The notes under the pieces were generated by a model. That model saw only the letters and a list, made by a program, of their open reading frames with translations, made no database searches and had not been told where the DNA came from. From Candidatus Mediterraneibacter norwichensis (GTDB taxonomy: Bacteria > Bacillota > Clostridia > Lachnospirales > Lachnospiraceae), in the NCBI GenBank assembly GCA_019112765.1, contig DXIU01000112.1, positions 1-32,000 on the forward strand: a stretch of 32,000 nt of DNA, in the 5' to 3' direction. This document shows positions 21,250 to 32,000 of this stretch, one piece after another. Position 1 is the first letter of the stretch, and every line of letters begins with the position of its first letter. Both the position numbers and the translations under genes were made by a program.

Positions 21250-22953
21250 TTATTCATTATGAAGAAGCTTGTGTTCCTTTCCTTTCAGGATGCCGTCATA
21301 TACGCTGGCCACAATGGGATTTTCATTGGACAGCCGGATCTGGGCCATATTGTCGATCTTATAGATGCCTTCCAGTCTGGCTTTTTTCGTCCGCGGTCCA
21401 ATGGGAACAGGCTGCCCGCCGCCGGCAATACAGCCTCTCTTGCAGGCCATGACCTCCACGAAATCATAGTGGGCCTCTCCTGCCTCCATTCTGTCCAGAA
21501 TGATTTTTGCACAGTGCAGTCCGTTTACAACCGCGATCTTTACGGTCCGGTCTCCAAGCTCAATCTGAGCCTCCTTGATTCCGTCCACGCCGCGGATTCC
21601 CGTAAAACTGATAGCTTCCAGATCTTCCTCCCGGTTGCTGCCGACGAGCCGGCGGAGCACCGCTTCCGTTACGCCTCCGGTTACGCCGAAAATTGCTCCG
21701 GCTCCGGACGCCAGTCCGAAAGGCATATCCAGCGACTCCGGCTTTACCTGGGACAGGTCAATGCCTGCCTCCTGGATCATGCGGGTAATCTCTGTAGTAG
21801 TAAGAACATAATCCACGTCCTGCTCGCCCTCGGTAAAATGTTCCGGTCTGCGGATCTCTGCTTTCTTTGCCGTACAGGGCATAATGGAAACGACTACAGT
21901 CTTTTTCACATTCTCTTCCCCGTTTTCCGCCGCTTTCGCGGCATTCATCCGCGCTTCCTCTTTTATCAGAGCGCCGAACATCTCCTGGGGAGACTTGCAG
22001 CTTGATATATTTTTCCGGAACCGGGGATACCGGTTCTCGCAGAATTTCACCCAGGCCGGACAGCAGGAGGTAAACAACGGCAGATTTTCTCCGGATTTCA
22101 GCCTCTCTACCAGTTCTTTTGACTCTTCCATTACCGTCAGGTCGGCGCCGAAATTTGTATCGTATACTTCATCAAATCCGATTCTTCTGAGGGCTGCCGC
22201 CAGACGTCCCAGCGTATTTTCCCCTTTCTTAATGCCAAACTTGTCTCCTACTGCCACACGGACCGCAGGAGCGATCTGAGCTACTACACGGATATTTCTG
22301 TCCGCCAGAGCCGCCCACACCGGAGCCACATCCTGTTTAATGCTGATCGCGCCGGTAGGGCAGACCGCACGGCACTGTCCGCAGCCCACACAGTCTGTCT
22401 GCGCCAGATCCCTGTTAAATGCCGGCATAACCTGCATCCTGGAACCGCGGAAGGCAAAATCCAGAATTCCCAGTCCCTGAATCTCTTCACAGGTACGCAC
22501 ACAGTCTCCGCACAGAATACATTTGTTCGGATCCCGGATGACACATTCCGAAGAGGTATCCAGCGGAAGCTGTTTCTTGTTGTTTTCAAAACGGACTTCA
22601 GTAATGCCCAGCTGACGGGACAGTTTCTGCAGCGTACAGACGCCGTTCTTCGCGCAGGTTGTACAGTCTCTGCAGTGGGAAGCCAGCAGCAGCTCGATGA
22701 TCATCCGTCTGTGATGCTGCAGCCGGGGCGTATTGGTATAGATCACCATGCCGTCTCTGGGCACCTCAGAACAGGACGCGAAAATTCTTCCCCGTTCGTC
22801 CTCCACTACGCACATACGGCAGGCTCCGTATGTAGACAGTTCCGAGTGATAGCAGAATGTGGGCAGGTCGATTCCTGATTTCCGGATTACAGAAAGAACA
22901 TTTCTCTCGTTTGTAAACGCAACCCTGCGGTTATTGATTGTCATATAACTCAT
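21250..22953 (-). CDS. hydA: [FeFe]-hydrogenase catalytic subunit (HydA/HndD type)
   Basis: An N-terminal 2Fe-2S ferredoxin domain is followed by several Cys clusters. The H-cluster motifs TSCCPAW, MPCTAKK and EVMACKRGCIAGGGQP are present. I moved the start to ATG 22953, 8 nt after an AGGAGG SD sequence. Confidence 0.93.
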   Translation of the reverse strand: MSYMTINNRRVAFTNERNVLSVIRKSGIDLPTFCYHSELSTYGACRMCVVEDERGRIFASCSEVPRDGMVIYTNTPRLQHHRRMIIELLLASHCRDCTTCAKNGVCTLQKLSRQLGITEVRFENNKKQLPLDTSSECVIRDPNKCILCGDCVRTCEEIQGLGILDFAFRGSRMQVMPAFNRDLAQTDCVGCGQCRAVCPTGAISIKQDVAPVWAALADRNIRVVAQIAPAVRVAVGDKFGIKKGENTLGRLAAALRRIGFDEVYDTNFGADLTVMEESKELVERLKSGENLPLFTSCCPAWVKFCENRYPRFRKNISSCKSPQEMFGALIKEEARMNAAKAAENGEENVKKTVVVSIMPCTAKKAEIRRPEHFTEGEQDVDYVLTTTEITRMIQEAGIDLSQVKPESLDMPFGLASGAGAIFGVTGGVTEAVLRRLVGSNREEDLEAISFTGIRGVDGIKEAQIELGDRTVKIAVVNGLHCAKIILDRMEAGEAHYDFVEVMACKRGCIAGGGQPVPIGPRTKKARLEGIYKIDNMAQIRLSNENPIVASVYDGILKGKEHKLLHNE

Positions 22954-22965
22954 GCTCATCTCCTC

Positions 22966-24852
22966 CTACCCTTCTACATGTATTGCGCCGAATGCACAGG
23001 CGCTCTCGCAGGCGCCGCACTTGATGCATTTTTCCGTGTCAATTACATATGGTTCCCTGAGCTGTCCGCTGATGGCTCCCACCGGACAGTTCCTTGCGCA
23101 CTTGGAACATCCCTTGCACCGCTCCGGACTTATGATAAAGCGCCTCAGAGCCGTACAGGTATGGGACGCGCATTTCTTGTCCACAACATGTTCCATATAT
23201 TCATCCCGGAACAGCTTCAGTGTACTCATAACCGGAAGAGCCGCGCTCTTTCCAAGACCGCACAGCGCTGTCTCCGTAATCGTATTGGCCAGTTCTTCCA
23301 GAAGATCCAGGTCTTCCACCTTTCCGTTTCCGGCAACAATCCGTTCCAGAATCTCCAGCATCCGCTTCGTGCCTTCCCGGCAGGGCACACATTTGCCGCA
23401 GCTTTCATTCTGTGTGAAATTCATAAAGAACCGGGCGACCTCAACCATACAGGTGTGATTGTCCATAACAACAAGACCGCCGGAACCGATCATAGCTCCC
23501 ATTTTCTTCAGAGAGTCAAAATCAAGGCTTACATCCAGATGAGGCGTAACAAGACATCCTCCTGACGGACCTCCGATCTGTACCGCCTTAAATTCCCCGT
23601 CCCCCTTGATGCCGCCGCCGATATCGTAAATGACTTCGCGGAGGGTAGTTCCCATAGGCACCTCGATCAGTCCGGTATGCTTCACACTTCCCGTCAGGGC
23701 AAAGGCCTTGGTTCCCGGGCTGTTCTCCGGTCCGATACTCTTAAACCAGTCCGCGCCGTCCATGATAATCATGGGAACATTGGCAAATGTCTCCACATTG
23801 TTCAGAACCGTAGGCTTGCCGAACAAACCCTGTTCCACGGTACGGGGCGGTTTGACTCTGGGCATTCCCCGGTTGCCCTCAATGGACGCGGTCAGAGCGC
23901 TTCCTTCCCCGCACACAAACGCGCCGGCTCCCCGGTTGATATGCAGCCGGAAGGAAAAATCTGTTCCCAGAATATGGTCTCCCAGAAGTCCGCACTCCTC
24001 CGCCTGGGCAATGGCCAGCTTCAGACGGCTGATGGCCAGCGGGTACTCTGCCCTTACGTAGATGTATCCTTCCTGGGCGCCTACCGCGTAAGCCGCGATC
24101 ATCATGCCCTCGATCATCTTGTGGGGATCTCCCTCCATGATGCTCCGGTCCATAAACGCGCCCGGATCGCCCTCGTCTCCATTACAGACAACGTAACGTT
24201 TTTTCTCGGCCTGTCTGGCCACCTGGGACCATTTATAACCGGTGGGGAATCCGCCGCCTCCCCTTCCTCTTAAGTTGGACTCGGAAATCTCCTGAATGAT
24301 TTCCTCCGGAGTCATTTCAAACAGCGCCTTTTCCAGGGCCTGATAGCCTCCGGTTGATATGTATTCCTGAATATGCTCTGCGTCGATATGTCCGCAGTTT
24401 TTCAGCACATTTCTGGTCTGCTTTTTATAGAAAGGAATCTCTTCCTGCTTCTTGTATTCGATTCCGTCCTGCTTGAACAGCAGATGACGGATAATGTCGC
24501 CTTTTTCTATGGTTCTGTGGAAGATCTCGTCACAGTCTTCCGGCTGTACTTTCGTGTACAGAATCCCCTGGGGCTCAATCCGCATAAGGGGTCCCATCTC
24601 GCAGAACCCGTGGCATCCGCTTTTCTTAACGCTGATCTCCCCGTTTCCATGGGCGATCTCCGGCCCGAAATGTACTTCCACATCCGGATGATCTTTCACC
24701 AGCGCGCACATTCTCTCATAGATTTCGCCGGATCCGCCTGCCAGGCATCCTGTCCCGGCACAGATCAGAATCCTGCATCTGCTGTCTGCAACCTGTGCTT
24801 TCGAAGCTTCCCGTACCTGTCCGAGAGCTTCTCTGTCTGCAATTCTCTCCAT
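22966..24852 (-). CDS. hydB: NuoF-like flavoprotein subunit of bifurcating hydrogenase (HydB/HndC)
   Basis: The FMN/NADH motif GRGGGGFPTGYKW and the 4Fe-4S motif ESCGKCVPCREG are present. There is an N-terminal thioredoxin-like 2Fe-2S domain and a C-terminal pair of ferredoxin motifs (CKGCSKC...CIKCGAC). Confidence 0.93.
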   Translation of the reverse strand: MERIADREALGQVREASKAQVADSRCRILICAGTGCLAGGSGEIYERMCALVKDHPDVEVHFGPEIAHGNGEISVKKSGCHGFCEMGPLMRIEPQGILYTKVQPEDCDEIFHRTIEKGDIIRHLLFKQDGIEYKKQEEIPFYKKQTRNVLKNCGHIDAEHIQEYISTGGYQALEKALFEMTPEEIIQEISESNLRGRGGGGFPTGYKWSQVARQAEKKRYVVCNGDEGDPGAFMDRSIMEGDPHKMIEGMMIAAYAVGAQEGYIYVRAEYPLAISRLKLAIAQAEECGLLGDHILGTDFSFRLHINRGAGAFVCGEGSALTASIEGNRGMPRVKPPRTVEQGLFGKPTVLNNVETFANVPMIIMDGADWFKSIGPENSPGTKAFALTGSVKHTGLIEVPMGTTLREVIYDIGGGIKGDGEFKAVQIGGPSGGCLVTPHLDVSLDFDSLKKMGAMIGSGGLVVMDNHTCMVEVARFFMNFTQNESCGKCVPCREGTKRMLEILERIVAGNGKVEDLDLLEELANTITETALCGLGKSAALPVMSTLKLFRDEYMEHVVDKKCASHTCTALRRFIISPERCKGCSKCARNCPVGAISGQLREPYVIDTEKCIKCGACESACAFGAIHVEG

Positions 24853-24856
24853 ACGC

Positions 24857-25330
24857 TTATGCTCCTCTCAACTCTCGAATCAACTCCGCCGCGGCGTCCG
24901 GGGTCATGGCCGGATATACCTTGTCATTTACCGTAAGAACCGGCGCAAGCCCGCAGGCTCCCAGACAGGAAACTGTCTCCAGCGTAAACAGCATGTCGTC
25001 GGTGGTCGCTTTTTCCTCAGAAAGGCCCAGTTCGCTGTACAGTCTCTCCAGAATCGGAATAGACTTACGCACATGACAGGCCGTGCCGTCACAGACTTTA
25101 ATGATGTATTTTCCCTTTGGCTCAAAGGAAAAATTCTCATAAAAAGTAGCCACACTGTAAGCTTTCGCCTCATTGATTCCCAGTTTCTCAGCAACATAGC
25201 TGAGAAGCTCCGGAGGCAGATACCGATATTCCGCCTGGATATCCTGAATAATAGGAATAAGGGCTGCCTGCTGTGACCCGTGTTCCGCAATAATTTCATC
25301 AGCCTTGTCATAGTAGGTCTGTTCTAACAT
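24857..25330 (-). CDS. hydC: NuoE-like 2Fe-2S subunit (HydC/HndA)
   Basis: The protein is 157 aa with the Cys pattern VCDGTACH...SCLGACGLAP. An AAAGGAGG SD sequence precedes the ATG. Confidence 0.9.
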   Translation of the reverse strand: MLEQTYYDKADEIIAEHGSQQAALIPIIQDIQAEYRYLPPELLSYVAEKLGINEAKAYSVATFYENFSFEPKGKYIIKVCDGTACHVRKSIPILERLYSELGLSEEKATTDDMLFTLETVSCLGACGLAPVLTVNDKVYPAMTPDAAAELIRELRGA

Positions 25331-25592: not shown

Positions 25593-26420
25593 CTAATAGC
25601 CGAAATACTGATCGATTCCATCTGCGATTCCCCGGACAATTTTATTCTGATAATCCTCCGTCGCCATAAGAGCGTCCTCCTCCGGGTTTGTCATATACCC
25701 CATCTCTACAATTGTAGCCGGGACCTGGCTCCAGTTATTGCCGCTCATGGAATCCGTCTCCCACACGCCGTCATTTTCGCATCCGGCAGATTCACTCAGC
25801 TTATTAATAATACAGTCGGACAGGGCTCTTGCCTGTTCGTAAAGTTCCGGATAGAACGGATTGTCCGGCGTAATACAGATCGTCATGGCGCCTTTCACCG
25901 AAGAATCCTCCGATCCGTTCGCGTGGATTCTGACAAATGCGTCCGCTTCTGCATTATTGGCTACGTCCGCCCTTTCAATACAGCTCACCGGCACATCATT
26001 GGATTCCCGGGTCATAAGCACGGTATACCCCCTGTCCTGCAGCACGTCTCTGAGCTTCTGGCTGACCGAAAGCGTCAGCTCATACTCTGCAAGTCCGCTG
26101 ACAGTTCCCGATGTTCCGGAAGTATCTGCCGCCTTGTTTTCAGTAGAGCCGGGGCCGAGAGGCTCTGTCCCTTCCGCAACCACAGCCGAATGTCCCGGAT
26201 CAATTACAACTGTCTGGGTTCTCTTCTGCTGCTCCGGCTCTTTTTCTTCCTCTTTTTCTTCCTCCGGTTCAGTTTCCTGTTTCTTGTCCTGCTCATCCAG
26301 TTCGATTACCAGATCCGCAACCTTCTTTTCCGGCTGTTCTTCTGTCTCTTCCCCTGAGGAACAGCCTGCCGCGGCCAGCGCGAGAACCGCCGCAGCCAGA
26401 ATCACTTTCCACCTTTTCAT
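25593..26420 (-). CDS. N-acetylmuramoyl-L-alanine amidase (Amidase_3), probable lipoprotein
   Basis: The signal peptide has the lipobox LAAAGC. An acidic low-complexity linker (EEEKEEEKEPE) follows. The catalytic motifs VVIDPGHS, RIHANG and VEMGYMTNPEED are present. Confidence 0.88.
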   Translation of the reverse strand: MKRWKVILAAAVLALAAAGCSSGEETEEQPEKKVADLVIELDEQDKKQETEPEEEKEEEKEPEQQKRTQTVVIDPGHSAVVAEGTEPLGPGSTENKAADTSGTSGTVSGLAEYELTLSVSQKLRDVLQDRGYTVLMTRESNDVPVSCIERADVANNAEADAFVRIHANGSEDSSVKGAMTICITPDNPFYPELYEQARALSDCIINKLSESAGCENDGVWETDSMSGNNWSQVPATIVEMGYMTNPEEDALMATEDYQNKIVRGIADGIDQYFGY

Positions 26421-26581: not shown

Positions 26582-27397
26582 ATGAGTATACAAGGACTTG
26601 ACGTCAGCGAATTTCAGGGCGAAGTGGACTGGGAACGGGTAAAAGCAGCCGGTTTTCAGTTCGCCATGCTCCGCGCCGGATACGGCGCCGGCACAGAAGA
26701 CCGCCGTTTCCGGCGCAACGCCTCCGAATGCGGCCGGATCGGGCTTCCTTTCGGCGTGTACTGGTTCTGCTATGCCGCGACTCCCGCCGAAGCAGCCGCA
26801 GAGGCCGACAGCTGCATCAGAACCGTTTCCTCCTTCCGGCTGGAATATCCGGTATGCTATGATATCGAAGAGGCTTCCGCCGATTATGTCCGGAAGCAGG
26901 GGGCTCCATTTAACGCTTCGCTGGCCCGGAAGCTGGTCCGGAGCTTCTGCAGCCGCGTGGAAGAGAAAGGATACTTTTCCATGTTTTACAGCAGCCGCAA
27001 CTTTATAGACACCTACCTGGGAAATGATCTCCGGAAGCGCTATGCACTCTGGTACGCCCGATACAGTGAACGTTTCGATGGCACCGGCTGCGGCATATGG
27101 CAGTACACCAGCCAGGGCAGTGTACCCGGAATCAGAGGGGATGTTGACCTGGACCGGGGATTTACGGATTACCCTTCCATAATCAGAAATGCCGGGCTGA
27201 ATCATCTCTCCGGAAGGCCTTCCCGGCCGGAACCGGACTATGTTACCTATGTCCTCCGCCCGGGAGATACCCTGAGTGAAATTGCCGCCAGATTCGGAAC
27301 AACTGTATCCGAGCTTGCCGGGCTGAACCACATTTCCAATCCGGACCAGATCTATGCCGGGGATACCATTCGTATTCCGGAAAAAGACGCGACTTAA
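26582..27397 (+). CDS. GH25 muramidase (lysozyme) with C-terminal LysM domain
   Basis: The N-terminus GLDVSEFQGEVDWERVKAAGFQFAMLRAGYG is a typical GH25 start. The C-terminal LysM domain reads YVLRPGDTLSEIAARFGTTVSELAGLNHISNPDQIYAGDTIRIP. No signal peptide is visible. Confidence 0.88.
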   Translation: MSIQGLDVSEFQGEVDWERVKAAGFQFAMLRAGYGAGTEDRRFRRNASECGRIGLPFGVYWFCYAATPAEAAAEADSCIRTVSSFRLEYPVCYDIEEASADYVRKQGAPFNASLARKLVRSFCSRVEEKGYFSMFYSSRNFIDTYLGNDLRKRYALWYARYSERFDGTGCGIWQYTSQGSVPGIRGDVDLDRGFTDYPSIIRNAGLNHLSGRPSRPEPDYVTYVLRPGDTLSEIAARFGTTVSELAGLNHISNPDQIYAGDTIRIPEKDAT

Positions 27398-27420
27398 GAA
27401 AATCATAATTTTTTTTCGAT

Positions 27421-27620
27421 TTCTTTTAGAGTTTAATCATATTTTTGACACATTTGGTTATTATACTTAGAGCCAGATAGTTGATAAACAACTATCTCCC
27501 CCCTCATAAAGTAATGGCATCCCGGGGGACCGGGATGTCGCACTTTACTCTCATTCCTTTAATAACTATAAAAACAACGGAAACCCGTCAGTCGAGAGGC
27601 TGACGGGTTTTCGCTGTCTC
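27421..27620 (+). ncRNA. Copy 1 of a tandemly duplicated ~200-nt element, a candidate structured RNA with its own terminator (class unknown)
   Basis: Copies 1 and 2 share colinear sequence at a 334-nt offset. Blocks at 27474-27512 (39 nt) and 27539-27560 (22 nt) are identical in both copies. Between them copy 1 has the hairpin catcccgg-ggga-ccgggatg. Hairpin P1 is gatagttg-ataa-caactatc (27476-27495). The terminator stem pairs 27574-27591 with 27600-27617. The strand call is tentative because the terminator looks bidirectional. Confidence 0.5.
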
Positions 27621-27625
27621 TTCCC

Positions 27626-27654
27626 TTGAAATAACAGATGCTCTGATGTATAAT
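27626..27654 (+). promoter_or_regulatory. Near-consensus sigma-A promoter, TTGAAA-N17-TATAAT
   Basis: TTGAAA lies at 27626-27631, the spacer is exactly 17 nt, and TATAAT lies at 27649-27654. The promoter points toward copy 2 of the repeat element. Confidence 0.6.
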
Positions 27655-27754
27655 TTATTAAGAATTTATTTATTAAGGAGTTAAATTTTAAAAAGTCAAT
27701 AGTGTGCCTGTTTTTCCTTATACTTTCTTTATCAATGCTTTATAATTTTCCTTT

Positions 27755-27950
27755 TTCTTTTATAGTTCACTCATATTTTTGTCACATTTTCCCTTTATAC
27801 TATGTATCAGATAGTTGATAAACAACTATCTCCCCCCTCATAAAGTTCAGACGCTGCAGGGCGTCGCACTTTACTCTCATTCCTTTTTAGATAACCAATA
27901 AAACAACGAAAGCCCGTCAGTGAAAGCTGGCGGGCTTTCGTTGTTTCTCT
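27755..27950 (+). ncRNA. Copy 2 of the tandemly duplicated candidate structured RNA element
   Basis: The identical blocks lie at 27808-27846 and 27865-27886. The central hairpin is replaced by an unrelated one, gacgc-tgcagg-gcgtc. The terminator stem aacaacgaaagcccg (27902-27916) pairs with cgggctttcgttgtt (27931-27945) and carries compensated differences relative to copy 1. Confidence 0.5.
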
Positions 27951-27982
27951 GCGTTCTTCTGTGATTCGTTTTTTATTTGTGA

Positions 27983-28011
27983 TTGTATTTCTTCGGGCAG
28001 ACATTTATAAT
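27983..28011 (+). promoter_or_regulatory. Candidate promoter of the methyltransferase gene, TTGTAT-N17-TATAAT
   Basis: TTGTAT lies at 27983-27988, the spacer is 17 nt, and TATAAT lies at 28006-28011. It sits just upstream of the GGAGGA SD sequence (28019-28024) and ATG 28033. Confidence 0.5.
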
Positions 28012-28032
28012 ACAGGCTGGAGGATTTTTGAC

Positions 28033-30918
28033 ATGAACAATTTTACGGTTTTAAACTATCAGGGCAGTAAAAATAATCTGCGGGATTTTATATATAAAAA
28101 TCTGAAACCATATATTCAGGAAGGAAAAGCCGTCTTTGATATCTTTTCCGGTTCCGCGTCTGTCAGCAGTATGTTCGGGCAGGAATACCTGGTATATGCC
28201 AATGACGCGGAGGCATACGCGTCTATTATCGCCGATGCTTTACTGAATCCGGCAGACATCCCCTCTCCTTCCGCTTTTCTGGAACAGATTGAAGCGGATT
28301 ATGCTGCCATAAAGCAGGCCCTTTGTATCCCTGTTCTTGATTTTATAAATCGGGAAAAGACTGCGCTGAAAGAAAACAATTACCGTGAGCTGAGCGCTGT
28401 TTATGATTCCTATCCTACCGTGTGGAATCAGAAATACTCAGATATTATTCAGAAAGAACTGACTGTTGAAAATATAAGGGCGGCAGATAACTACTATCTT
28501 TTCACCACGTATTACGCATCCAACTACTACGGGATCGGACAGGCACTGGAAATTGACTGTATCATCAAACTGATACACACACGCTTTCCTTCCTGCAGAA
28601 ACGCCCTTCTTATGTGCCTGTTTTATGCCATGAAGGAAACGGTTTTCTCCAAGGACGGACATATGGCGCAGCCCCTGAATCCGGAAAAAAATCAGCGCCG
28701 GCTGTTTCTGCAGCGCAGCAAATACGTATATGAGCTTTTTATAAGAAAGCTTCGGGAATATCTTGCCCTCCCGCTTCCGGAGTACTCCGGAAAGAACCGG
28801 GTCTTTAATAAAAATTTCGAAGAACTCCTGACCATGAATATTTTTTCAGATGTGGGACTTGTATATGCGGATCCGCCTTACACGGATATGCAGTATTCGA
28901 GATATTATCATCTTCTCAATGTTGCGGTCAGATATGAATATCCGGATCTGACCCGCTCCAGAAACGGATATACAAAGGGGCTGTATACCGAAGGCCGCTA
29001 TCAGTCAAAACTGAGCCAGCGCAGTTCTGCCGGAAAATCTCTGGAACGTTTAATCTCCTTCTGCGCCGGCGCCGGGGTCAATCTGGCGTTAAGCTACGCC
29101 TATCCCCAGGACAGAAAGAAACAGGCGACAGACCGCTATACCATTTCCATTGACGAATTAATCCGGCTGGCCCGGAAACATTTTTCACCGGAACGGGTTA
29201 CAGTAGCCGCCCAGTCATACAGCCATGCGAACCACCGCAACAGCACCCAGAAAAAGGTTGTGGAATATCTGATTCTCTGTGGAGATAAAACCGGAAAAGA
29301 GCTGAATTATGATACGCTGAAAAAGCAGATCGCCAATGTTGTCCCCAGCAAGAATAATGCCATGTATAATTCTCATATGTACTGGTCTCAGAAAGCCTAC
29401 AATATATGCGATATCCTGATTCAGACATTATCAGACAGGGGCGGGGTTGTGTTTGATCCTTTCTTAGGCTCAGGCGTTACAGCACTGGAAGCCATCCGTG
29501 ACGATACAGGTAGAAAAGCTGTGGGCTGTGATATTAACGACATGCCCGTCTTTATTTCCAGAACGCTGCTGTCTGTAAACAGCAGCGGAAATATCCGGGA
29601 AATTCTGGACGATTTTCTGGAAAAGCTGACGCCTTTGACAAGGTATTATCGGACAACCTGTCCGGTCTGTCACAAAACAGGAACCATATCCAAAGTTCTG
29701 TTTGATAAGCCGGACCGGCAGAAAAATGTATTTAAAATCAAGACAGTCTATTATTCCTGTCCGTGTACAAAAAAAGGCGTGAAGGAGCCGGACGAAGAAG
29801 ACCGCCGCCTTATGCAGACAGTCCCTGTCCTGGAAAATATAACGGATACCGCTTTACTGGCGAATTCAAAAATCGCGGTCAGTGAAAATGATGATATCAG
29901 AAACATTTTTACCGGAAGGAATCTGGCGGTACTTGATGAAATCCTGACAATCATCCGCGGGTACGAAGACCGTTATCAGAATATATTAAAATACATCCTG
30001 ATGTCCGTGCTTCACCTGTGCAAGATAACAGACAGACATTCCAATTCACAGTGGCCTCTGTGGATTCCGAAGACGGACTGTGTTGAAAAGAATATTATTG
30101 AAATCTTATCAAAAAAAGTTCATAAATTTAACGATGTAATTGCGTTTATGAAAGAGAACTATTCTCATGCCCGGATTGTCAGTTCCTACGATGAACTGCA
30201 GCCCGGCAGCTGTCTTCTGCTGCAGAAAGGCTGCCAGAACATTACCGGAGATGACATTCCCGACGGCGGAGCCGACCTGATCATTACGGATCCCCCGTAT
30301 CTTGAACAGGTCCTGTACTCGGAATATATGCAGTTATACAAACCTTTCCTGGGGTTCGGCTACAATCTGGCGGATGAAATCGTAGTCTCTTCCGCGCCTT
30401 CCAGAGACAAGAACAGGGAGGACTATTTCCGGCTGCTGGACCAGGCCTTTGACATGTGTTCACGAAAACTGAAGCTCCACCGGCATATGTGTCTGTATTT
30501 TCACGACTGCAGCCTGGACGTCTGGAACCGTCTCATCACCATTCTGGAAAGCAGGGGGTTCCGGTTTATCACACAGATTCATATCCGGAAAACTGTTACG
30601 CTGAAAAATATTATAAGCCCGAAAAAATCGCTCAACGGCGACTCCATACTTATTTTCTCAAAGGAGGACGCCCCTGTCGTTCATCACACGGAGACGGAAG
30701 ATATTGCTGAAATTGAGACAGCTATTATCCGGCAGAGCAGAGCTATGATCCGGGCAGACGGCCCCCAGTCCACCCCCGAGCTCTATGACAACGGGCTTAT
30801 GGAACTTCTGATTCAGAACGGCTGGCTGGCCGGACTTTCTCAGAAATACTCTTCCCTGGTCGATATTTTTGAAAAGCATCTGACCTGGGATTCTCAGACC
30901 GGAAAATGGATGATCTAG
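28033..30918 (+). CDS. Fused two-module DNA methyltransferase: N-terminal Dam-like (D12-class) N6-adenine module plus a permuted N4/N6 (DPPY) module containing a Cys4 zinc ribbon
   Basis: Module 1 has NYQGSK (28054-28071), FDIFSGSAS (28135-28161) and ADPPY (28870-28881), the same motif order as Dam (KWAGGK...EPFVGAGS...DPPY). Module 2 has SQK...VFDPFLGSGVT (29452-29475), CPVC...CPC (29659-29766) and IITDPPY (30289-30300), followed by a motif V-VIII-like segment. I moved the start to ATG 28033, which follows the SD sequence. Confidence 0.88.
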   Translation: MNNFTVLNYQGSKNNLRDFIYKNLKPYIQEGKAVFDIFSGSASVSSMFGQEYLVYANDAEAYASIIADALLNPADIPSPSAFLEQIEADYAAIKQALCIPVLDFINREKTALKENNYRELSAVYDSYPTVWNQKYSDIIQKELTVENIRAADNYYLFTTYYASNYYGIGQALEIDCIIKLIHTRFPSCRNALLMCLFYAMKETVFSKDGHMAQPLNPEKNQRRLFLQRSKYVYELFIRKLREYLALPLPEYSGKNRVFNKNFEELLTMNIFSDVGLVYADPPYTDMQYSRYYHLLNVAVRYEYPDLTRSRNGYTKGLYTEGRYQSKLSQRSSAGKSLERLISFCAGAGVNLALSYAYPQDRKKQATDRYTISIDELIRLARKHFSPERVTVAAQSYSHANHRNSTQKKVVEYLILCGDKTGKELNYDTLKKQIANVVPSKNNAMYNSHMYWSQKAYNICDILIQTLSDRGGVVFDPFLGSGVTALEAIRDDTGRKAVGCDINDMPVFISRTLLSVNSSGNIREILDDFLEKLTPLTRYYRTTCPVCHKTGTISKVLFDKPDRQKNVFKIKTVYYSCPCTKKGVKEPDEEDRRLMQTVPVLENITDTALLANSKIAVSENDDIRNIFTGRNLAVLDEILTIIRGYEDRYQNILKYILMSVLHLCKITDRHSNSQWPLWIPKTDCVEKNIIEILSKKVHKFNDVIAFMKENYSHARIVSSYDELQPGSCLLLQKGCQNITGDDIPDGGADLIITDPPYLEQVLYSEYMQLYKPFLGFGYNLADEIVVSSAPSRDKNREDYFRLLDQAFDMCSRKLKLHRHMCLYFHDCSLDVWNRLITILESRGFRFITQIHIRKTVTLKNIISPKKSLNGDSILIFSKEDAPVVHHTETEDIAEIETAIIRQSRAMIRADGPQSTPELYDNGLMELLIQNGWLAGLSQKYSSLVDIFEKHLTWDSQTGKWMI

Positions 30919-30923
30919 AGCAG

Positions 30924-30957
30924 GAAAAGGGGGTTCTCCGAAGAGAGCCCTCTTTTC
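30924..30957. terminator. Bidirectional terminator between the convergent methyltransferase and nuclease genes
   Basis: A 15-bp stem gaaaagggggttctc pairs with gagagccctcttttc, including two G-U pairs, around a cgaa loop. A/T runs flank both sides. The 3' arm overlaps the stop codon of the nuclease ORF. Confidence 0.65.
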
Positions 30958-31502
30958 TATGCATTCCGGCTGCCGTTATAATACTGCCCCGGAAAATACT
31001 TATCCAGCTTTTTCATCAGCTCTGTTCCGTCTGTTGTTCCCACTTCCAGGTCCCTGGCAACTTTTTCGCCGTCCTTTGTATAACCGGAGGTAGTGATACA
31101 GACGGCCGCGTCAAATCCTCTTCTTTCACGCTCCGCGTACAGCCGCTGAACAGGTTCTGAACCCACGTTGTGCACCCAGCGTTTGCACTGGAAAAGCTCA
31201 CGGCATATTCTGCCGTTTTCCTGCCTGGAGGCCATAATATCAACGCCCAGATCTCCGGCGCCTCCGATTCTCACCACATTTTCATATCCCTCTGCCTTCA
31301 GCAGCCGGACAATCAGCTCTTCAAATTCCGTTCCGGTCAGCGTGGAAATATCAACAGCGTCCTCATTCGGTTTTGCAGTGTCCTTCCTCTCCACATAATA
31401 TTTATCTTCTATTACGCAGTAGTTTAAAATCAGGCGCTCAATTTCACTCTGATGGCTTCCTCTTCCAGAATCTGAATGATTGTTTTCGGATTTCCGTCGC
31501 AC
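30957..31502 (-). CDS. Mrr_cat-type (PD-(D/E)xK) restriction endonuclease domain protein; start uncertain
   Basis: GTEFEELIVRLLKAEGYENV...GGAGDLGVDI...LFQCKRW...CITTSGYT matches the Mrr catalytic-domain pattern (D...D...QCK). The track start, GTG 31502, has no SD sequence and overlaps the upstream ORF by 73 nt. The only other candidate start is GTG 31394. Confidence 0.75.
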   Translation of the reverse strand: MRRKSENNHSDSGRGSHQSEIERLILNYCVIEDKYYVERKDTAKPNEDAVDISTLTGTEFEELIVRLLKAEGYENVVRIGGAGDLGVDIMASRQENGRICRELFQCKRWVHNVGSEPVQRLYAERERRGFDAAVCITTSGYTKDGEKVARDLEVGTTDGTELMKKLDKYFPGQYYNGSRNA

Positions 31503-32000
31503 AGGGCGTTTACCAGTTCAAAACAGATATCTTCCAGAACAAATTTCCCTTTCCTCTCCAGAATCCGGCGGATAAATACCGGCATCAGATCATAAATCTT
31601 CGTGTACAGGGCGTCCGAGTCTTCAATATCCAGATAGAGCCGGTTGTCACTGATCTGAATCACTCCTGCGTCCACACTGAAATATTCCAGAAGCAGACGT
31701 CTGATTTTTTCATTATCACTCTCTGAAGCAAGATACTGATATCTGATTCTCAGATCGTCACGCGCCAGCTTTACCGCTCCCGAAAGGGTTACGCAGTCTT
31801 TTGCGTCAAGCAGATGAAAGTATATTTTCCTGACCAGAAGGAACTCATAATTGTCATTTCCTATGTACCAGTATCTGTCCTTCTCATCCAGTTTATAAAA
31901 TGCCGCGATTATTTCATTCATAAATGTATTTGTAAAAGCGGCCTGCTTCCGTATCGTAGGGTCCGTTTTGACAAGATCCGTCTGGTATGCGTACTCAAAT
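31430..32000 (-). CDS. Protein of unknown function, 3' part only
   Basis: The frame stays open upstream of ATG 31921 all the way to position 32000, reading FEYAYQTDLVKTDPTIRKQAAFTNTF before MNEII. ATG 31921 has no SD sequence, so the gene probably starts beyond the window. I recognise no motifs. Confidence 0.6.
   Translation of the reverse strand, partial: FEYAYQTDLVKTDPTIRKQAAFTNTFMNEIIAAFYKLDEKDRYWYIGNDNYEFLLVRKIYFHLLDAKDCVTLSGAVKLARDDLRIRYQYLASESDNEKIRRLLLEYFSVDAGVIQISDNRLYLDIEDSDALYTKIYDLMPVFIRRILERKGKFVLEDICFELVNALCDGNPKTIIQILEEEAIRVKLSA

Follow-up and report, generated by a model that had tools for sequence, protein, structure and literature searches.

The 32,000-nucleotide (nt) stretch of Candidatus Mediterraneibacter norwichensis DNA analyzed here (contig DXIU01000112.1, hereafter the window) carries, towards its right end and on the plus strand, two colinear copies of an element, copy A (27393–27620) and copy B (27727–27947). 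The window is chromosomal, from a Clostridia-type anaerobe. Pfam assignments place the two copies after a HydABC-type hydrogenase operon (21250–25330, minus strand), an Amidase_3 gene (25593–26420, minus strand), and a GH25 muramidase gene with LysM (26582–27397, plus strand); methyltransferase and nuclease genes follow. We interpret copies A and B as two paralogues within a Lachnospiraceae-specific family of small regulatory RNA genes, each transcribed independently; to this reading, together with the mode of action proposed below, we assign a probability of about 0.6.

An initial annotation of this DNA had described two diverged tandem copies, 334 nt apart, of a ~200-nt element, probably an undescribed structured RNA. 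Repeat search and MAFFT alignment confirm the pair and its offset, with 27393–27640 and 27727–27970 sharing 84% column identity over ~245 nt. Homology already begins at ~27393, to the left of the boundary first drawn at 27421, and ends on the right at the terminators (27620 and 27947). The repeat is thus real, but it comprises an ~80-nt promoter region, conserved family-wide, plus an RNA with a predicted length of 146 nt in copy A and 139 nt in copy B. A shared core of 39 nt (CAGATAGTTGATAAACAACTATCTCCCCCCTCATAAAGT, at 27474 and 27808) was correctly delimited and occurs exactly twice in the window (none expected from shuffles), whereas the second shared block, originally counted as 22 nt, extends to 24 nt (GTCGCACTTTACTCTCATTCCTTT, identical at 27537 and 27863). 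The features of the two copies are as follows (copy C, used in one alignment, lies beyond the window):

27393–27474, plus strand: copy A promoter region, with CTTAAGA at about -82, T-tracts, two 11-nt direct repeats, and a -10 box (matrix of 132 members)
27437–27445 and 27448–27455, plus strand: copy A direct repeats, TCATATTTT (degenerate) and ACACATTT (family matrix)
27462–27467, plus strand: copy A -10 box TATACT; canonical -35 absent
27475–27497, plus strand: copy A likely start A (27475) and 5' hairpin AGAUAGUUG-AUAAA-CAACUAUCU (member matrix, minimum free energy (MFE) fold)
27498–27506, plus strand: copy A C-rich single strand, CCCCCCUCA within UCUCCCCCCUCAU, the proposed seed (unpaired in MFE and centroid folds)
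27507–27547, plus strand: copy A helix of UAAAGU (27507–27512) and ACUUUA (27542–27547), enclosing the variable hairpin 27515–27540
27548–27573, plus strand: copy A second CU-rich single strand, CUCUCAUUCCUUUAAUAACUAUAAAA (near-invariant columns in 31 long-form members; unpaired in the fold)
27574–27620, plus strand: copy A terminator hairpin, then UUUUCGCUGU (terminator scan, covariation)
27475–27620, plus strand: copy A covariance-model match, 155.3 bits
27727–27808, plus strand: copy B promoter region (alignment with copies A and C; family matrix)
27771–27779 and 27782–27789, plus strand: copy B direct repeats, TCATATTTT and TCACATTT (family matrix)
27796–27801, plus strand: copy B -10 box TATACT (family matrix)
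27809–27947, plus strand: copy B RNA (covariance-model match, 126.3 bits; inverted repeat)
27809–27831 and 27832–27840, plus strand: copy B 5' hairpin and C-rich strand (fold)
27841–27846 and 27868–27873, plus strand: copy B UAAAGU and ACUUUA, with the variable hairpin at 27850–27865 (fold)
27874–27900 and 27901–27946, plus strand: copy B CU-rich strand and terminator (fold)

Both copies fold into the same three-hairpin structure, with an MFE of -64.2 kcal/mol (z = -8.0) for copy A and -59.0 kcal/mol (z = -8.7) for copy B. In the predicted RNA, nine unpaired bases (CCCCCCUCA) separate a 5' hairpin from the UAAAGU/ACUUUA helix with its variable hairpin; an unpaired CU-rich stretch (CUCUCAUUCCUUU...AACUAUAAAA) and a long terminator hairpin followed by UUUUCG complete the molecule. 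The 5' hairpin, annotated with 8 base pairs (bp) and an AUAA loop, is present but has 9 bp and a 5-nt loop. Directly after it comes a single-stranded C-rich stretch (UCCCCCCUCAU); as had been proposed, the C-rich UCUCCCCCCUCAU is unpaired in the MFE and centroid folds of both copies, and it is also unpaired in the family consensus structure. The MFE folds agree as well that central hairpins of entirely different sequence (GGCAUCCCGG/CCGGGAUGUC in copy A, GACGCU/GGCGUC in copy B) occupy the same position. The claim that the terminator stems differ by compensated changes held for one pair (A-U to G-C), but the other difference is a G.U wobble. Between terminator A and promoter B (27626–27654, plus strand) we observed a near-consensus sigma-70-type promoter (TTGAAA-17-TATAAT, 11/12), with AAGGAG downstream and without an open reading frame (ORF), which could drive read-through into copy B.

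Relatives, conserved structure, and promoter

One genome per species was scanned with the pattern GATAGTTG-N4-22-CTATCTCCCCC-N0-2-TCAT, for which our own estimate is ~1 chance match. At least 119 genome stretches matched, nearly all from Lachnospiraceae (carriers include Dorea, Mediterraneibacter, Coprococcus comes, Fusicatenibacter, Acetatifactor, Oliverpabstia, Eisenbergiella, Butyrivibrio, Bariatricus, and Extibacter). A blastn search of a phage collection yielded four human-gut contigs with relatives, and true members also turned up on IMG/VR contigs with a pattern built around the C-rich core; the total stands at at least 143 instances, at least 138 of them unique. A repeat dispersed at random positions, which would have spoken against a conserved RNA, is not what we see: the copies lie at a small number of conserved loci, and every copy has a conserved promoter of its own.

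Members of the family take two forms (individual loci are given below by L numbers). In the short form, which accounts for 95 of the instances listed and has a median predicted length of 84 nt, the 5' hairpin and UCCCCC(C)UCAUAAGAAA are followed immediately by the terminator. The long form has the architecture of the window copies (41 clear and 7 probable members among the instances listed). A long-form covariance model matched only copies A (155 bits) and B (126 bits) in the window, and in related loci it also recovered diverged copies missed by the pattern.

Some arrangements within the family stand out. Three tandem short-form copies are spaced exactly 229 nt apart at L112:5978–6467, and tandem pairs occur at L004, L010/L038/L079, L056, L142, L156, and L161. 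At L049:2843–2960 and L144, the short-form terminator lies inside a longer inverted repeat and a G-rich complement of the seed (UUUCUUAUGAGGGG) sits just 3' of it, so that read-through transcripts could have their seed sequestered. In the long form, the 3' linker (27560–27573 in copy A, family consensus AGAUAACUAUAAAA) resembles the 5' hairpin (AGAUAGUUG...CAACUAUCU) minus its middle; it may be left over from an internal duplication, or it could form an alternative structure by pairing with the 5' arm.

The variable hairpin has 33 distinct sequences in 35 long-form members, with inserts of ~20 to 37 nt, and each of the 35 inserts folds as a hairpin closed by UAAAGU/ACUUUA (mean z = -3.7 versus shuffled inserts). 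RNAalifold on a plain MAFFT alignment recovered the 5' hairpin alone because the variable hairpins were misaligned, and pairs were counted on a covariance-model alignment of 40 long-form members instead. In this alignment 93.9% of cells pair, and 30 of the 45 base pairs show double changes (232 cells). The covariation score of 0.399 compares with 0.142 after shuffling (none of 500 shuffles reached it) and with at most 0.065 when partners were slid 1–3 columns. These results bear out the earlier proposal that structure has been under selection, as opposed to a recent duplication. Covariation is confined to two elements, involving all 11 pairs of the central hairpin and 18 of the 19 terminator pairs (15 of 16 in the main helix and 3 of 3 in the basal extension). 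It is uninformative on the 5' hairpin and the UAAAGU/ACUUUA helix, as both are invariant in sequence bar a few G.U pairs; for the 5' hairpin, this invariance arises partly because the search pattern fixed GATAGTTG and CTATC. Among the members listed, the 5' hairpin keeps its stem sequence while its loop varies by more than 10 nt, as would be expected of an RNA stem but not of a dimeric DNA operator.

Helix-specific counts of 101 G.U against 30 A.C pairs point to the plus strand, although the covariance-model alignment was fitted to the plus-strand structure and so favours both pairing and G.U. The plus strand also folds 5 kcal/mol better than the minus strand in both copies. Two other comparisons were uninformative: whole-molecule energies and G.U counts on both strands of 130 members, because the G-rich minus strand forms many G.U pairs, and the count of U-tracts after MFE stems, because A-tract and U-tract pair into the stem. 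A conserved reading frame was considered on either strand and ruled out, since the C-run is 5, 6, or 7 nt long (in 42, 77, and 11 members, respectively) and the diverse insert lengths are not multiples of three.

Upstream of the RNA, 90 nt align gap-free in the 132 listed members, which were anchored on the hairpin to build a position matrix. This region contains TATAnT, two phased direct repeats, T-tracts, and a TTAAGA-like element at about -82. The likely start is the A directly before GAUAG (GAUAGUUG), found in 120 of the 132 members 7 nt after the -10 box. With its register corrected, the repeat motif is T.aACAcA.TTTggACACATTT, two 11-nt units, and in a scan of 1.3 Mb all 126 sites above the 10th-percentile true-site score precede copies of the small RNA (sRNA). 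The repeats span -39 to -31 and -28 to -21 and end ~6 bp before the -10 box (-14 to -9); a -35 hexamer at canonical distance is absent from the family promoter alignment. At OmpR/PhoB-type-activated promoters, ~11-bp direct repeats replace the -35 box and end ~10 bp before the -10 box, and the pho, WalR, and PhoP boxes offer comparisons for such a geometry. The promoters described here resemble this type in layout, a likeness that does not in itself establish a match to any regulator, and control of the gene by a response regulator is a tentative suggestion that we hold at somewhat less than even odds. Standalone Spo0A_C-domain proteins were considered as the dedicated regulator and dropped, being present in just 4 loci. 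ORFs of this kind (Spo0A C-terminal domain, ~135 aa) lie directly upstream of long-form genes, on the same strand, at L061:4196–4594, L072:4900–5370, L089:3987–4340, and L153:1082–1450.

Neighbouring genes, alternative explanations, and proposed function

The internal order of promoter, hairpin, C-run, and terminator is constant across the family, but its orientation to neighbouring genes varies and the neighbour gene families differ between the two forms. The short form usually occupies the recJ–murE intergenic region. Where both neighbours were called, 24 loci have the arrangement murE←, sRNA→, ←recJ, and 6 have the inverted arrangement recJ→, sRNA→, murE→. The occurrence of both orientations across ~40 such loci (e.g., L055, L084, L130) indicates that the cassette was inverted in place during evolution. 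Long-form neighbours include GH25-LysM genes upstream (as in the window), tyrosine integrases, an AraC-type response regulator, Hydrolase_4, and small Spo0A_C-domain ORFs.

These arrangements bear on whether the element might be a cis-acting leader, attenuator, or riboswitch of the downstream gene (here the methyltransferase), or else a minus-strand element such as a G-rich murE leader or a tiny ORF behind the Shine-Dalgarno-like run GGGGGGAG. By a simple ORF call, the next gene lies on the same strand in 41 of 130 cases, within the recJ–murE locus the element directly precedes murE whichever way it points, and the minus strand offers GAGGGGGGAG followed by GUG or UUG. However, the downstream gene is convergent in the other 89 cases and belongs to varying families, and upstream orientations divide 66 to 64; such varied neighbours and mostly convergent downstream genes argue against a cis-acting leader. 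Each copy, moreover, has a strong terminator of its own, and orientation to murE flips while internal order never does. The mini-ORFs of the minus strand are not alike in the short and long forms, and upstream register shifts of +/-1 as well as the variable C-run disrupt them. We regard a leader or minus-strand element as extremely improbable. Nearly as improbable is the idea that the repeats are DNA-level attachment or recombination sites, or scars of elements, kept through recognition by an integrase. Several features described in the next section invite it: tyrosine integrases beside nine long-form loci, a prophage abutting one copy, an identical terminator recurring with integrases, a module shared by loci L035 and L085, and an island between direct copies B and C. 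Yet ~40 short-form copies at recJ–murE have no integrase nearby, compensatory changes preserve the hairpins and G.U is tolerated on just one strand, and the conserved -10 box and upstream repeats keep a constant spacing from the hairpin. An RNA gene could in any case also serve as an insertion site, as tRNA and tmRNA genes do.

A different possibility is that the sRNA is real but does not act by base pairing, its 5' hairpin and C-rich strands serving to titrate or recruit an RNA-binding protein (a KH-domain protein, a poly-C-binding protein, or Hfq via the AAYAAYGAA tract) or to fill some other non-antisense role. Recognition by a protein would explain why sequence is invariant from genus to genus in the 5' stem, the C-run, and the second CU-rich block but drifts freely in the structural hairpins, and no pairing target was found in the sequence searched (the window and regions near neighbouring start codons). 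Against this, UCCC-type motifs in Firmicutes have repeatedly proved to be Shine-Dalgarno-binding seeds (PMC4132741), and a C-run whose length ranges from 5 to 7 nt is easier to reconcile with flexible pairing to G-runs than with a fixed protein site. We consider such a role unlikely, though less so than the two readings above.

We return, then, to an independent sRNA gene. Each copy has its own -10 promoter and a covarying terminator, and its position is independent of the flanking genes, so that the element is very probably transcribed on its own. The C-rich motif is exposed as a single strand in both copies and in the consensus, as in the UCCC class of sRNAs; the long form adds a second CU-rich strand, and up to three copies stand in tandem (L112). 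Most likely, by analogy with that class, the product is a trans-acting sRNA under transcription-factor control that blocks G-rich ribosome-binding sites, and the chance that it acts by pairing with Shine-Dalgarno regions seems to us about even.

The mode of action of the UCCC-motif sRNAs LhrC, RsaE, and FsrA provides a model for the exposed C-rich strands. A transcription factor, most simply a winged-helix response regulator, would bind the ACACAnTTT repeats in place of a -35 box and switch the gene on. The ~140-nt transcript would begin at the base of the stable 5' hairpin, which would protect its 5' end, and would end at the intrinsic terminator. UCCCCCCUCAU would be displayed as a single strand, with the second CU-rich strand (CUCUCAUUCCUUU) as a further seed and the central hairpin as a spacer whose structure is kept and whose sequence is free. 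Both C-rich strands could then pair in trans with G-rich Shine-Dalgarno regions and block translation initiation. The neighbourhood of murE and muramidase genes hints at control of the cell envelope.

Several observations weigh against this reading. The start site, the transcript ends, and expression are predictions, and the promoter repeat has no match to any verifiable known binding site. No covariation is seen in the 5' hairpin or the UAAAGU/ACUUUA helix, and the alignment behind the pair counts is biased towards plus-strand pairing in the manner noted above. With ~41 kb of this genome to draw on, no target was identified: in the window and near neighbouring start codons, complementarity to the seed was at the ordinary Shine-Dalgarno level, judged without a background comparison.

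The Lachnospiraceae rank among the most abundant gut bacteria of humans and animals, and our literature search found no sRNA described for the family. An sRNA gene conserved in more than 100 species, with a dedicated promoter motif and an obvious seed, would offer an entry point to their post-transcriptional regulation, as the promoter motif may lead to the signal and regulator and the seed to the regulon.

Mobile elements at long-form genes

The initial annotation placed the element at the left border of a methyltransferase/nuclease block, and copies B and C indeed flank this block. Copy C, a long-form member convergent with a Hydrolase_4 gene, lies outside the window, ~8.4 kb to the right of B, on a longer public contig of the same region (L168:18169–18310, plus strand; window coordinate = L168 + 18032, i.e., ~36201–36342). 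Copies B and C are mutual closest relatives whose central stems differ by compensatory changes, and they form direct repeats around a ~8.2-kb block containing two methyltransferase-like genes, an Mrr-like nuclease, a zinc-ribbon protein, and a second GH25 gene. There is no integrase in this island. According to Pfam and PADLOC, its part within the window comprises:

28033–32000: left part of the B–C island
28033–30918, plus strand: 961-aa DNA methyltransferase
30957–31502, minus strand: Mrr-like nuclease ORF
right end of the window, minus strand: start of a second methyltransferase-like gene

Related loci show other insertions. The closest syntenic genome found, from an uncultured Mediterraneibacter (L151; hydrogenase genes at 83% nucleotide identity), has in place of the window arrangement a GH25-LysM gene, a first sRNA copy, a truncated tyrosine integrase on the opposite strand, a small ORF, and a diverged second sRNA copy with the seed CUUCCCCCUUAU (L151:215–1841, minus strand). 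In L166 (10994–13354) and L167, the sRNA follows GH25-LysM at the same locus as in the window, and the end of a siphophage-type prophage (tape measure, Dit, tail fibre, endolysin) abuts it ~200 nt beyond the sRNA 3' end. At L007, a prophage junction lies on the 5' side, at -82. Tyrosine integrases adjoin long-form copies at L001, L007, L010, L021, L035, L036, L038, L079, and L151, and the terminator CCCGTTAGCCCTTGTGGTTAGCGGG recurs beside integrases in different sRNA backgrounds (L001, L035, L036, L151), as well as at L071 and L155. The integrase-bearing L035 and the Dorea locus L085 match at 100% only over a 190-nt module (cassette positions -92 to +99, the promoter and the RNA body without its terminator), while their terminators and both flanks are unrelated.

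Taken together, these junctions indicate that insertions recur at the long-form gene, by integrase-bearing elements, by prophages, and, here, by a methyltransferase/nuclease island. Homology breaks at -82/-92 and at +99; a crossover core and a precisely empty site were not found among these loci, nor was an attR-like copy of the sRNA 3' end found inside the window. Alternatively, the island may have arisen by homologous recombination between sRNA copies, in keeping with its lack of an integrase. Insertion by prophages and by an island of restriction-modification type would make these genes a new class of RNA-gene integration hot spot, and their role as insertion points should help to delimit mobile elements in Lachnospiraceae genomes.

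It is conceivable, if doubtful, that the long-form paralogues double as attachment sites and cargo of phages and defence islands, within a Lachnospiraceae-wide, signal-controlled regulon of C-rich sRNAs that is comparable to LhrC or RoxS, though unrelated by descent, and has its core copy at recJ–murE. A regulatory RNA of the host would then be a target for insertion and duplication by mobile elements, which might even re-supply or rewire it, and the hypervariable central hairpin could be a determinant of specificity or immunity, as opposed to a neutral spacer.

Comparison with known systems

We found no description of this RNA in open-access text, and its core motifs were absent from the first 200 of the 408 supplementary files that accompany Fremin & Bhatt's large catalogue of structured RNA candidates in human microbiomes; it may still have been listed before without a name. 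That no Rfam family would be recognized was anticipated, and a covariance-model scan with Rfam 15 of the 32-kb window and 12 related loci with short and long forms gave no match at gathering thresholds. Relaxing E to 10 over 27300–28100 produced 20 matches, all terminator look-alikes (Thr_leader, for example, scored 26 bits against a threshold of 55). Among the sub-threshold matches, RsaE (RF01820) reached 19.5 bits against a gathering score of 79 (E = 1.3) at 27509–27612, from the central hairpin of copy A through its terminator, with the C-rich seed outside the match. The LhrC model had no match in the same interval at E up to 10, and the ylbH motif (RF00516)/CsfG had none on either strand.

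Genes for tRNA and tmRNA serve as attachment sites of integrative elements, and the new family resembles them as a small conserved RNA gene found beside integrases and prophage ends, with direct gene repeats bounding an island. The recurrence of the same terminator in different sRNA backgrounds makes it seem that here, too, the element supplies a replacement 3' end. Unlike tRNA and tmRNA sites, however, entire cassettes with their promoter are repeated in place of a 3' fragment, and insertions occur on the 5' side (L007) as well as the 3' side.

Among regulatory RNAs, RsaE/RoxS is of similar size and has C-rich single strands, used there for Shine-Dalgarno pairing, but differs in motifs, fold, and taxonomic range. 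ResD or SrrA, response regulators of the OmpR family, control RoxS. The promoters of the sporulation sRNA CsfG are of the forespore sigma-F/G type, unlike the sigma-A-type -10 box and direct repeats of the new family. CsfG and the new family are nonetheless both conserved Firmicutes sRNAs with CU-rich stretches: CsfG, the reverse strand of the ylbH motif, is found in endospore formers and carries such stretches in loops and between helices (PMC3574147).

The closest parallel in organization is with LhrC1–5 of Listeria monocytogenes, five copies that depend on LisRK and are induced by cell-envelope stress (PMC4132741). Three redundant UCCC sites of LhrC, in loops and in a single strand, bind a G-rich site of lapB upstream of the start codon and block translation, and the UCCC motif is also used by RNAIII, RsaE, SprD, and FsrA (PMC4132741). 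As with LhrC, several near-identical copies per genome each have a promoter and terminator, and the RNA is ~100 nt long and G-poor, with redundant single-stranded motifs of the UCCC type. Conserved promoter elements imply one dedicated regulator, as LisRK is for LhrC, and the link of LhrC to the cell envelope finds an echo in the proximity of the new family to murE, GH25 muramidases, and an amidase. The two families nevertheless lack sequence or covariance-model similarity and differ in secondary structure, the new one having an invariant 5' hairpin and a hypervariable central hairpin, and their hosts belong to different classes (Clostridia here, Bacilli for LhrC). By these comparisons the family appears to be new, but the kind of element is well known, an LhrC/RsaE-like sRNA without homology to either.

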